From the NCBI RefSeq assembly GCF_003334305.1, contig NZ_QOWS01000013.1: a stretch of DNA of 64,000 bases. One strand, given 5' to 3'. The stretch comes from Escherichia coli. GTDB taxonomy: Bacteria > Pseudomonadota > Gammaproteobacteria > Enterobacterales > Enterobacteriaceae. The position numbers and the translations under genes were made by a program. Positions 58,748 through 61,977 of this stretch are shown here, in pieces (the first letter of the stretch is position 1; each line of letters starts with the position of its first letter). Below the pieces are notes generated by a model, which did no database searches, had not been told where the DNA came from, and was given only the letters and a program-made list of their open reading frames with translations.

Positions 58748-59881
58748 TCAAAACGAAGCTAATTGACTCTGAATCCAGATTTGTTGCACATGCAGCCCGC
58801 TATCCAGCGCAACGATGCTGGCGCGTTTGCCCGGTTTAAGCGATCCCAGAACACCATCAACACCCAGCATTCGCGCCGGATGCAGCGATGCCATATGAAT
58901 GGCTTCCGCAGGCGTTACGCCCGTCAACTCGACCATGTTGCGCACTGCCGCATCAACAGACAGCGTACTGCCCGCCAGCCCACCGGACGCGGTACGGACA
59001 ACGCCACCGTGCATCTGCACTTCTTCGCCACATAACGTATAGCGACCATCCGGCATCCCGGCTGCCTGCATCGCGTCGGTGATCAGCACGATTCTCTCTT
59101 TTGCACAGCAACAACACAGCGACATCGCCGCCGGATGCACATGATGACCATCGGCTATCAGTTCCAGCCAGGCGCGCTTGTCCGTTAATCCCGCGCCAAC
59201 CATTCCCGGTTCGCGGTGATGTAAACCTGTCATCCCGTTATAGCAATGCACCAGGCCGTCGGCACCAGCATCAAACGCGGCGCGAGTTTGTTGCCAGGTC
59301 GCCGCGCTATGCCCCAGCATCACTCGTACATTTTGCTGTTTAAGATGGCGGATGGCCTGCAATGCCCCCTCTTTTTCCGGTGCCAGCGCTACCACGCGTA
59401 AGGTGTGCTGAGAAACGGCAATCAATTGATCCAGCTCGGCAATTTCAAGCTCGCGAAACAATTCCGGCGGATGCGCGCCTTTATTCTGCGGCGTGAAGTA
59501 CGGTCCTTCGAGATAACTCCCCAGCACTTGCGCACCAGGTCCGCCGCGTTGGCAACGTTGAGCAATACGTTTCAGCGCCGCATGAATGCTGTTAAGCGGC
59601 GCGGTTACGGTAGTCGGCAACCAACTGCCGACACCTTCGCGTGCCTTGTGCATTGCCAGCTTGTCGAGTACATCCGGCGCGTCATCCATTACATCAACGC
59701 CCGCACCACCGTGTACATGGGTGTCGATGTAAGCGGGGCAGAGCAGTTCCGCATCGCGTTCAGTCACGCCCACTGGAATCGGTTCGATTGCTGCGATGAC
59801 ACCGTCAGCAATACGCAACTGATGGTCATCGAGCCATCCCTCTTCAGTCAGCAGCCTTCTGGCGCGCAGAACGTGTGTCAT
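58748..59881 (-). CDS. agaA: N-acetylgalactosamine-6-phosphate deacetylase AgaA, full length
   Basis: MTHVLRARRLLTEEGWLDDHQL..., 377 aa, NagA-like; start overlaps the agaF stop; full-length here versus the truncated K-12 allele as I remember it. Confidence 0.88.
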   Translation of the reverse strand: MTHVLRARRLLTEEGWLDDHQLRIADGVIAAIEPIPVGVTERDAELLCPAYIDTHVHGGAGVDVMDDAPDVLDKLAMHKAREGVGSWLPTTVTAPLNSIHAALKRIAQRCQRGGPGAQVLGSYLEGPYFTPQNKGAHPPELFRELEIAELDQLIAVSQHTLRVVALAPEKEGALQAIRHLKQQNVRVMLGHSAATWQQTRAAFDAGADGLVHCYNGMTGLHHREPGMVGAGLTDKRAWLELIADGHHVHPAAMSLCCCCAKERIVLITDAMQAAGMPDGRYTLCGEEVQMHGGVVRTASGGLAGSTLSVDAAVRNMVELTGVTPAEAIHMASLHPARMLGVDGVLGSLKPGKRASIVALDSGLHVQQIWIQSQLASF

Positions 59882-60312
59882 ATTCCTTCCTCGACCGGAC
59901 ATTCTTCATGGCAGCGGCCTAACTCGTCCACCAGACTGGTCAGCCCTCGGTGTCCACACTCCAGCGCCTGTACACGGAATTCTTCACCACTTAACCCTTC
60001 GCGCTCCAGCACCATCTCCAGTAGCAGTTGCAAATTGGTGCCGGTGATCACTTCACAGCCCGGTTTTTGCATCGCCAGCGTTGAAGCTACGCGAAACGGC
60101 GTGCCGCCCAGCAAATCCGTCAGAAAAACAATGCCGTCTTCACAATCCAGTTGGGCGATGGCCTCTTCAAGCTGCGATGTAAGCAGCGCGGTGCTTGAGG
60201 TTTCCGGAAAATCGATGGCGATAAACTGCGATTGCTCACCGAGAATTTGCTTCATTGCTTTTTCCATGCCGCTGGCAAACCCGCCATGCCCTGTCAAAAT
60301 AATACTTAACAT
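59878..60312 (-). CDS. agaF: PTS N-acetylgalactosamine-specific EIIA component AgaF
   Basis: 144-aa ORF MLSIILTGHGGFASGMEKAM, mannose-family IIA. Confidence 0.88.
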   Translation of the reverse strand: MLSIILTGHGGFASGMEKAMKQILGEQSQFIAIDFPETSSTALLTSQLEEAIAQLDCEDGIVFLTDLLGGTPFRVASTLAMQKPGCEVITGTNLQLLLEMVLEREGLSGEEFRVQALECGHRGLTSLVDELGRCHEECPVEEGI

Positions 60313-60329
60313 CTAATACCTCATTGTAT

Positions 60330-61214
60330 TTAAAGGAAATGGCAGAATTTACCGACGATGCCGAGAACCACGGTAACTGCAATCAGACGCAGCGGACTCC
60401 AGCCGCGGCGTACCAGCCAGAACATGGTCAAGGTGTAGACCAGCGGTAAGAAGGCAGGCATCAGTTTGTCAATAACATCAGTCTGTAACTTAACCACTGC
60501 GTCGCCCGCTGTGATTTCCAGCGTGGTGCTTAAACGAACATAGGTTGCCACCAGCGCGCCGATTACCGTCATCCCAACGATAGACGCAGCATGGCCGACT
60601 TTTTTGGTATTCGCTTTAATGAGTGGAATCGCCGCCACGCCCATGCGGTAAGCATAATGCGCCAGACCAAAACGCAGCCCCAGGTGTACCACGTTGAACA
60701 GCACAATAAATACGACTGCGCCAAGAATAGAGCCTTGTAGCGCAAGGCTTGCGCCTATCCCGCCACAAATCGGCAGTAGCGTTAGCCAGAACATTGCATC
60801 GCCAATCCCGCCGAGCGGCGCACCGACGGCAATTTTGGTGCTCTGAATACTGTTAACGTCCTGCTTAGAACGCTCCATCGCAAGGATAATGCCGATAACA
60901 AATGTCACCAGAAACGGATGGGTATTGAAGAAACCCATATGCCCCTTCATGGCGCGCGCCAGGTCGCGTTTATTAGTGTGGATCTTTTTCAGAGCAGGCA
61001 GCAGACCGTACAACCAGCCAGAAGCCTGCATACGTTCGTAGTTAAAAGACGCTTGTAACAGCATGGAACGCCAGGCGACGCGGTTGATATCTTTTTTCGT
61101 CAGCTCCGCGCCAATGCTCTGATCTTCATACACGTTTTCATTGACGCCAGTCAGCAATGTTTCTTCGTTTTCACTGACGTTCGGCAGGGTGGTTTGATTA
61201 GATGCCATCTTCAA
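60330..61214 (-). CDS. agaE: PTS N-acetylgalactosamine-specific EIID component AgaE
   Basis: 294-aa ORF paralogous to AgaD (shared SLLQASFNYERMQA motif); exact start (MKMASN vs MASN) uncertain. Confidence 0.85.
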   Translation of the reverse strand: MKMASNQTTLPNVSENEETLLTGVNENVYEDQSIGAELTKKDINRVAWRSMLLQASFNYERMQASGWLYGLLPALKKIHTNKRDLARAMKGHMGFFNTHPFLVTFVIGIILAMERSKQDVNSIQSTKIAVGAPLGGIGDAMFWLTLLPICGGIGASLALQGSILGAVVFIVLFNVVHLGLRFGLAHYAYRMGVAAIPLIKANTKKVGHAASIVGMTVIGALVATYVRLSTTLEITAGDAVVKLQTDVIDKLMPAFLPLVYTLTMFWLVRRGWSPLRLIAVTVVLGIVGKFCHFL

Positions 61215-61977
61215 ATTCCTCTTTCTGTGCCGCAGGTTGAGTCGGTTCAGGAGATTTACGCAGCAGGTCGATCAGCGCCATCGCCAGCGCAGCGGCAGCA
61301 ATAGCCAGCACCGGTAACTTGAGCCAGGCTGCGGCAACAAAGCCCAGGATGAAGTAGGGGATGTAGACGTTTTTCATCATGATTTTCAGCAGCACGGCAA
61401 AACCGATTGCTGGCATGATGCCGCCCGCGACGCCGAGGCCGTCGATTAATCGTTGCGGCAGGACATCAATGATGGTTTTTGCATGTTCCGCGCCGAAGTA
61501 GATAGGCAGGAAAGCGCAGAGAAAATAGAAAGTGCCGAGTGCCAGCAGTGCCAGATAGTTCACGCGTTCAATGCCGCGAGTATCGGCGTTCTCCGCCATC
61601 CGGTCGCAGCGAGACATCACGCCAGACATCACCGAGAACAGGAAGGTAATCCCCATCTGTACTGCGACAGCGAAAGGTACGGCGACACCGACCGCGACAT
61701 CGGGTTTCACGCCAGTAGTAATGGCAAACGCCGTGCCGACGATAGTACCGATAATCACGTTAGGCGGCTGTGCGCCCGCTAGCGGGGCCAGCCCCATCCA
61801 CACCAGTTCCAGCGTACCGCCGGTTAAAATTCCGGTATGCAGATCGCCAAGTACCAGCCCGACCAACGGGCCGAGGACCACCGGGCGGTGCATATGGGTT
61901 AAGCCGTTAAACATATCCAGGCCAGCGATAAAGGCGATAATGCCCAACGCAAATGCCTGCAACAGGCTGATTTCCAT
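61198..61977 (-). CDS. agaW: PTS N-acetylgalactosamine-specific EIIC component AgaW, full length
   Basis: 259-aa ORF paralogous to AgaC. Confidence 0.88.
   Translation of the reverse strand: MEISLLQAFALGIIAFIAGLDMFNGLTHMHRPVVLGPLVGLVLGDLHTGILTGGTLELVWMGLAPLAGAQPPNVIIGTIVGTAFAITTGVKPDVAVGVAVPFAVAVQMGITFLFSVMSGVMSRCDRMAENADTRGIERVNYLALLALGTFYFLCAFLPIYFGAEHAKTIIDVLPQRLIDGLGVAGGIMPAIGFAVLLKIMMKNVYIPYFILGFVAAAWLKLPVLAIAAAALAMALIDLLRKSPEPTQPAAQKEEFEDGI

Follow-up and report, generated by a model that had tools for sequence, protein, structure and literature searches.

An intact aga/gam cluster of Escherichia coli is already known and is textbook biology. The locus of E. coli C was reportedly described by Brinkkötter et al. 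in 2000, together with the original account of the K-12 deletion. E. coli C grows on both N-acetylgalactosamine and galactosamine and has been characterised experimentally (Hu et al. 2013, PMC3668189). The full-length agaWEFA segment is also carried by O157:H7 strains EDL933 and Sakai and by the 2006 spinach-outbreak isolates, but in O157:H7 codon 8 of agaC and codon 72 of agaI are amber, so that it cannot use galactosamine, and the spinach-outbreak isolates additionally carry AgaF Gly91Ser and do not use N-acetylgalactosamine (PMC3668189). In K-12 MG1655 the locus (b3132-b3141) lies at the same chromosomal position and retains kbaZ, agaV, agaS, kbaY and agaBCDI, but it has no agaE or agaF, and of agaW and agaA only pseudogene fragments remain.

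Gene content and integrity of the locus

The 64,000-nucleotide stretch of DNA analysed here (the window) contains a complete aga/gam cluster of 12 structural genes at 53348-63764, with the minus strand coding for both operons, kbaZ-agaVWEFA and agaS-kbaY-agaBCDI. We regard it as almost certain that this is the complete wild-type E. coli regulon, with the repressor gene agaR lying beyond the window. The genes are as follows, with NCBIfam bit scores given against the curated cut-off of each model.

62484..63764 (-), kbaZ (agaZ), GTG start, 426 aa, first gene of the kbaZ-agaVWEFA operon; non-catalytic subunit/chaperone of tagatose-1,6-bisphosphate aldolase, based on the intact ORF and the kbaZ annotation in the identical strain A7 (NF012002 KbaZ equivalog, 897 against 707)
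61988..62461 (-), agaV, 157 aa; PTS EIIB for N-acetylgalactosamine, with conserved His15 within the RLIHGQV motif (NF008508, 320 against 180)
61198..61977 (-), agaW, 259 aa, full length; PTS EIIC for N-acetylgalactosamine (NF040757 AgaW, 411 against 300); only the 5' part remains in the MG1655 pseudogene
60330..61208 (-), agaE, 292 aa, overlapping agaW by 11 nt; PTS EIID for N-acetylgalactosamine (NF040760 AgaE, 617 against 500)
59878..60312 (-), agaF, 144 aa; single PTS EIIA of the N-acetylgalactosamine and galactosamine transporters (NF040761 AgaF, 219 against 130)
58748..59881 (-), agaA, 377 aa, full length, its start overlapping the agaF stop (ATGA); N-acetylgalactosamine-6-phosphate deacetylase of the NagA family, aligning over its full length to solved NagA structures (generic nagA equivalog TIGR00221, as an AgaA-specific model does not exist, 289 against 226); only the 3' part remains in the MG1655 pseudogene
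57243..58397 (-), agaS, 384 aa; galactosamine-6-phosphate deaminase/isomerase (TIGR02815, a subfamily model, 634 against 529)
56370..57230 (-), kbaY (agaY), 286 aa; catalytic subunit of tagatose-1,6-bisphosphate aldolase (NF009375, 667 against 542)
55727..56203 (-), agaB, 158 aa; PTS EIIB for galactosamine (NF007288, 281 against 180)
54885..55688 (-), agaC, 267 aa; PTS EIIC for galactosamine (407 against 300)
54104..54895 (-), agaD, 263 aa, overlapping agaC by 11 nt; PTS EIID for galactosamine (NF007359, 457 against 400)
53348..54103 (-), agaI, 251 aa; NagB-like putative galactosamine-6-P isomerase (NF007291, 474 against 271)

In all 12 genes the length is a multiple of 3, the start and stop codons are proper, and the frame runs without an internal stop. 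Every protein matches its model over the full length, 11 of them above the curated cut-off of their own equivalog and AgaS above the subfamily cut-off. Together with the non-pseudogene calls made by NCBI PGAP for all 12 genes in the identical strain A7, this bears out the original prediction that the whole structural gene set is intact. That prediction had focused on 58748-61977, which runs on the minus strand from the agaW start codon (first base 61977) through the agaA stop codon (last base 58748) and encodes four intact proteins: AgaA (377 aa), AgaF (144 aa), AgaE (292 aa) and AgaW (259 aa). Like the other eight, these four ORFs are uninterrupted, and the lengths of all 12 are the same as in E. 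coli C.

The gene order, kbaZ-agaV-W-E-F-A followed by agaS-kbaY-agaB-C-D-I, is that of the E. coli C-type regulon, and the packing is operon-like, with overlaps of 4 and 11 nt and gaps of 0 to 38 nt. Shine-Dalgarno sequences precede 11 of the 12 starts. For agaA, the mechanical ORF list extends to an ATG at 59902; the annotated start at 59881 has a good Shine-Dalgarno sequence. The 13th gene of the regulon, agaR, begins 13 nt past the end of the window and is annotated as intact in A7, which is 100% identical to the window. Like agaR, ptsHI and pfkA are outside the window. An Rfam scan of the whole window gave no matches within the aga locus.

Phosphotransferase systems, pathway and operators

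The cluster encodes two paralogous IIB/IIC/IID sets, with identities of 49% for AgaV/AgaB, 36% for AgaW/AgaC and 45% for AgaE/AgaD, and agaF is its only IIA gene; the NCBIfam equivalog of AgaF is itself named "galactosamine/N-acetylgalactosamine transporter subunit IIA". These identities and the lone IIA gene agree with the proposal that two mannose-family PTS sets share one EIIA. Membership of the mannose family is evident from the separate IIC and IID and the mannose-type IIB and IIA (TIGR00822, TIGR00828, TIGR00854 and TIGR00824). In an alignment to 1vrc/1pdo, His9 of AgaF falls on His10, the phosphorylated residue of mannose IIA, and AgaV and AgaB both carry an RLI/VHGQV motif with an N-terminal histidine. 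From established knowledge of ManX, we take the histidines of AgaF, AgaV and AgaB to be phospho-acceptors. The four-part IIA/IIB/IIC/IID composition, in which IID is a subunit of its own as is characteristic of the family, is shared with ManXYZ and with the sorbose and fructose/levan systems. Unlike in ManX, where IIA and IIB are fused, these domains are separate polypeptides in the aga cluster, which also differs from all of these systems in serving two IIBCD sets with one IIA and in having amino sugars as substrates.

A pathway can be proposed by taking its steps from what has been established in E. coli C and O157:H7. The kbaZ-agaVWEFA operon would supply the N-acetylgalactosamine permease (IIB AgaV, IIC AgaW and IID AgaE), the IIA protein AgaF, the deacetylase AgaA, and KbaZ; agaS-kbaY-agaBCDI would supply the galactosamine permease (IIB AgaB, IIC AgaC and IID AgaD), AgaS, the aldolase subunit KbaY, and AgaI. 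Phosphate would pass from PEP through EI and HPr to His9 of AgaF, and then to the histidine in the RLxHGQV motif of AgaV or AgaB, so that import would yield the sugar 6-phosphate. GalNAc-6-P would be deacetylated by AgaA, and AgaS would convert GalN-6-P to tagatose-6-P and ammonia. Tagatose-1,6-bisphosphate would then be made by the kinase PfkA, encoded elsewhere, and cleaved by KbaY/KbaZ to DHAP and glyceraldehyde-3-P. The role of AgaS has been demonstrated genetically, and agaI is dispensable for growth on either sugar (PMC3668189).

Both promoters would be repressed by AgaR through clustered operators of the CTTTC type. The following regions and elements are concerned.

63765..64000 (-), kbaZ promoter region, part of the divergent agaR-kbaZ intergenic region, with inverted repeats I12 and I13; AgaR-operator-like sites at 63796-63819, 63878-63901 and 63973-63996
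58398..58747 (-), agaA-agaS intergenic region of 350 bp, the agaS promoter region; AgaR-operator-like sites at 58449-58472, 58527-58550 and 58686-58709, by motif search
about 58620-58675, REP-like element within the agaA-agaS intergenic region (repeat families D4/D5/I11)

The pattern used in the motif search was the operator consensus reportedly given by Ray and Larson in 2004. It has seven matches in the entire window, six of which fall in the kbaZ and agaS promoter regions, against 0.19 expected there by chance. AgaR binds before agaZ, agaS and agaR according to a later paper, which leaves the consensus itself unprinted (PMC4694137, citing Ray and Larson 2004). A scan of 52900-64000 for the sigma-70 consensus gave eight sites, against 11.2 expected, none of which has a convincing position at either the kbaZ or the agaS promoter. 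Terminator-like matches lie mostly within genes and were set aside.

Comparison with K-12, E. coli C and the species

Alignment to MG1655 by blastn, with a base-by-base walk along a K-12-type locus and MG1655, placed the difference at about 59303-61607: 2305 bp of the window are missing in K-12, and the exact breakpoint is ambiguous within a repeat. The missing DNA comprises the 3' end of agaW, agaE, agaF and the 5' end of agaA, and an imperfect 10-bp repeat, GGTCGC(C/A)GCG, occurs once at each of its ends.

59297..59306, microhomology copy in agaA, GGTCGCCGCG, K-12 deletion boundary
61602..61611, microhomology copy in agaW, GGTCGCAGCG, K-12 deletion boundary

The content of the two loci thus differs as had been anticipated, and the statement that K-12 lacks precisely these gene parts is upheld by the alignment, by the pseudogene fragments and by the 2.3-kb deletion reported in the literature (PMC3668189, PMC9628945). 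The window holds the full segment in place of the K-12-type agaW'-'agaA junction. K-12 lost the 2305 bp through deletion between the near-identical 10-bp repeats inside agaA and agaW. With the sole IIA and the IID gone and the IIC and deacetylase truncated, K-12 uses neither sugar. The only other indels relative to MG1655, of about 120 bp and 146 bp, are intergenic repeat elements, so that the segment is the largest structural difference from K-12 in the window, in agreement with the original prediction. Assignment to a non-K-12 lineage is likewise confirmed: the window matches E. coli strain A7, from orangutan faeces, at 100% identity (52000-64000 checked base for base), and in the flanks its identity to MG1655 is 98.6-99.3%.

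Between yraH and agaR, E. coli C (ATCC 8739) carries these 12 genes with unchanged order and orientation. Nucleotide identity across the 10.4-kb locus is 98.8%, and no indels separate the two. AgaF, AgaW, AgaV, AgaC, AgaD and KbaY are identical in the two strains, and the other six proteins have one to four substitutions each, giving 15 amino acid differences in total. These are scattered point substitutions (AgaE V224I and T243A, AgaA S98T, which is its only one, AgaS E3K, N274D and T316S among others), all conservative and common in the species, and none is at a known functional position. The three known natural inactivating lesions of O157:H7 are absent from the window: agaC codon 8 and agaI codon 72 are both CAG, and agaF codon 91 is GGC, the wild-type glycine.

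Of 5426 complete E. coli genomes, 4945 (about 91%) contain the 2.3-kb segment that appears "extra" relative to K-12, at 95-100% identity, a range that also holds for the flanks. The K-12 junction occurs in 371 genomes, and the best 60 of these 371 matches are nearly all named K-12 laboratory derivatives; by arithmetic on the counts, about 20 genomes have the flanks but lack both the segment and the K-12 junction. The intact locus is therefore the species norm and K-12 the exception, and its commonness across the species says something about K-12 rather than about the source strain.

Alternative readings and predicted phenotype

A presence/absence polymorphism alone gives no direction, and the segment could in principle be a lineage-specific insertion acquired by horizontal transfer rather than a loss from K-12. 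This reading is refuted by the K-12 flanking genes, which are truncated forms of the agaW and agaA found at full length in the window, and by the species-wide distribution of the segment at the same identity as its flanks. The segment also has an ordinary GC content (53.9%, near the 52.3% of the locus) and no mobile-element features, and the K-12 junction falls within 10-bp microhomology, as is typical of deletion.

Deletion from K-12 being the reading retained, an intact-looking locus might still be phenotypically silent through a missense or regulatory defect invisible to ORF inspection. The AgaF Gly91Ser change of the spinach-outbreak O157:H7 isolates is a documented precedent (PMC3668189), the 15 differences from E. 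coli C offer room for such a defect, and agaR is not visible in the window. We nevertheless consider a cryptic locus very improbable, as AgaF, AgaW and AgaV differ at no residue from their counterparts in E. coli C, which grows on the sugars, AgaE has two conservative changes only, Gly91 of AgaF is kept, both the ribosome-binding sites and the clustered operators are intact, and agaR is annotated as intact in the identical A7. It is likewise very improbable that the substitutions relative to E. coli C (for example AgaE V224I/T243A or AgaS E3K/N274D/T316S) alter substrate range or regulation in a primate-gut lineage, or that the 10-bp microhomology GGTCGCNGCG makes the deletion recur in natural isolates. 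A functional wild-type locus remains the preferred reading, with no sequence evidence pointing the other way, and its near-identity to that of E. coli C and the absence of the O157:H7 lesions lead us to predict, from sequence, that the source strain is positive for growth on both N-acetylgalactosamine and galactosamine.

The intact aga locus makes no open questions testable, and the value of the result is one of bookkeeping: the window is not K-12, and it predicts use of N-acetylgalactosamine and galactosamine, both derived from mucin, as in most E. coli. At the aga locus, it is K-12 that is the atypical E. coli strain.

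Gene content and transporter architecture

Minus-strand reading frames follow one another in unbroken series through 52-64 kb of the window, and 12 aga/kba genes were translated from their annotated coordinates:

53348-54103, minus strand: agaI, 251 aa
54104-54895, minus strand: agaD, 263 aa
54885-55688, minus strand: agaC, 267 aa
55727-56203, minus strand: agaB, 158 aa
56370-57230, minus strand: kbaY, 286 aa
57243-58397, minus strand: agaS, 384 aa
58748-59881, minus strand: agaA, 377 aa
59878-60312, minus strand: agaF, 144 aa
60330-61208, minus strand: agaE, 292 aa
61198-61977, minus strand: agaW, 259 aa
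61988-62461, minus strand: agaV, 157 aa
62484-63764, minus strand: kbaZ, 426 aa, GTG start

None of the 12 translations contains an internal stop. The twelve structural genes are thus intact, as the original prediction held, and the span that it assigned to agaW, agaE, agaF, and agaA (58748-61977) runs exactly from agaA through agaW. The mechanical open reading frame (ORF) of agaA (58748-59902; 384 aa) is extended upstream to another in-frame ATG, at position 59902; the start annotated at 59881, which gives 377 aa, has a better Shine-Dalgarno sequence (GAGGAAGGAAT) and an ATGA overlap with the agaF stop. The frames of agaD, agaE, and agaV are likewise overextended in the ORF list. Neighboring genes overlap by 11 nt (agaW/agaE and agaC/agaD) or 4 nt (agaF/agaA), and little space separates the other genes, which have good Shine-Dalgarno sequences; only the agaA-agaS (350 bp) and kbaY-agaB (166 bp) gaps are exceptions. 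This packing is typical for operons.

Every protein of the locus was scored against NCBIfam models at curated cutoffs. AgaF, AgaE, AgaW, AgaV, AgaB, AgaC, AgaD, AgaI, KbaZ, and KbaY matched their own equivalogs over the full length and above the cutoff, AgaS passed the AgaS-family model, and AgaA, which can be aligned over its whole length with solved structures of NagA, passed TIGR00221 (nagA deacetylase equivalog). All transporter genes belong to the mannose/fructose/sorbose PTS family and form two IIB-IIC-IID sets (pairwise identity between sets, 49%, 36%, and 45%), whose paralogy is visible in the DNA as direct repeats ∼6.2 kb apart. The sole IIA gene is agaF; when its product is aligned with the mannose IIA domain, His9 falls opposite His10, the residue phosphorylated in that domain. 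The proposed arrangement of two parallel mannose-family PTS sets with one EIIA is therefore upheld.

The K-12 deletion and the species norm

Alignment of the whole window with K-12 MG1655 (NC_000913.3) gave four blocks of 98.6 to 99.3% identity, and MG1655 has no counterpart for the sequence between 59306 and 61602; the deletion measures 2,305 bp. The flanking blocks share 10 bases in K-12 because a 10-bp direct repeat, GGTCGC(C/A)GCG (9/10 identical), is present in both agaA (59297-59306) and agaW (61602-61611); the deletion endpoints lie within it. Such a short repeat at the junction fits a microhomology-mediated deletion, which may have arisen by slippage or illegitimate recombination. The MG1655 remnants are annotated as pseudogenes agaW (b3134) and agaA (b3135), and agaE and agaF are missing, whereas all four genes are full in the window; the deletion thus has the predicted extent, from the agaW 3' end through agaE and agaF to the agaA 5' end.

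Only two further differences from MG1655, intergenic repeats of ∼120 and ∼146 bp, occur in the window, and the aga segment is therefore its main strain-level difference, as had been suggested. An ERIC/IRU repeat between ubiV and yhbW (36876-36994; ∼120 bp), absent from MG1655, contains GTGAATCCCCAGGAGCTTACATAAGTAAGTGACTGGGGTGAACG, the sole such core motif in the window. REP/BIME-type palindromic repeats (∼146 bp) lie between dacB and obgE/cgtA in MG1655 but not at this place in the window (∼9817-9821), where the obgE stop is followed almost directly by the shared terminator hairpin.

Positions 52000-64000 and the first 49.6 kb are base-for-base identical to E. coli A7 (orangutan feces; NZ_CP028767.1), whose annotation gives agaR and each of the 12 genes as a normal coding sequence, none of them a pseudogene. 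The 2,291 bases internal to the deletion are present in 4,945 of 5,426 complete E. coli genomes (at least 80% of the segment in 4,931), and a 300-bp query spanning the junction of K-12 matched contiguously in 371. Almost all of the best 60 of these 371 matches are recognizable K-12 laboratory derivatives (e.g., MG1655, DH5alpha, DH1, C600, J53, and NCM3722). An intact locus is therefore not unusual but normal for the species, the deletion being a K-12 peculiarity. By subtraction from the 5,336 genomes that hold the flanks, ∼20 appear to carry another lesion at the locus, e.g., strain AST46 (match H60 of the segment search).

Regulatory elements

The AgaR operator pattern, said to have been given by Ray and Larson in 2004, is reportedly WRMMTTTCRTTTYRTTTYNYTTKK. 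This pattern has seven matches in the window at ≤3 mismatches (0.19 expected), six of them located either between agaA and agaS (58449-58709) or in front of kbaZ (63796-63996), and the repeat finder independently recovered these same elements (D4, D5, and I11 to I13). The strongest site, without mismatches, occupies 63973-63996 at the right edge of the window; the repressor itself is outside, the agaR start codon being 13 nt past position 64000. Direct AgaR binding represses agaZ, agaS, and agaR itself (PMC4694137). A simple sigma-70 scan added nothing on regulation of the locus. A candidate REP-like palindromic element, recognized by eye from the REP consensus, is located at ∼58620-58675 (TGTCGGATGCGACGC...GCGTCTTATGCGACCTAC, then GCCGCATCC), between the agaA end and the agaS promoter/operator cluster.

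The Rfam scan found no families inside the locus. Gathering-threshold matches at 11318-29021 (greA, rimP, and S15 leaders, SraG sRNA, naRNA4 [26923-26993], tRNA-Met [metY], and tRNA-Leu [leuU]) are all expected for a core E. coli region.

Predicted phenotype

Pathway roles were taken from published genetics, in which the deaminase is AgaS rather than AgaI, AgaI is dispensable, and NagA can stand in for AgaA (PMC3668189). Three natural inactivating lesions have been described in O157:H7, namely, AgaF Gly91Ser and ambers at agaC codon 8 and agaI codon 72 (PMC3668189), whereas the window has GGC, CAG, and CAG, respectively, at these codons. The locus shows 98.8% identity, without indels, to that of E. 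coli C ATCC 8739, the reference strain able to grow on both sugars; AgaF, AgaW, AgaV, AgaC, AgaD, and KbaY are the same proteins, and each of the remaining six has 1 to 4 differences. Given this near-identity and the absence of the O157:H7 lesions, growth on N-acetylgalactosamine and galactosamine is predicted from sequence, with agaR, ptsHI, and pfkA lying outside the window. The original observation is confirmed and its interpretation supported: this is a well-known catabolic locus, already described, in its common wild-type form.
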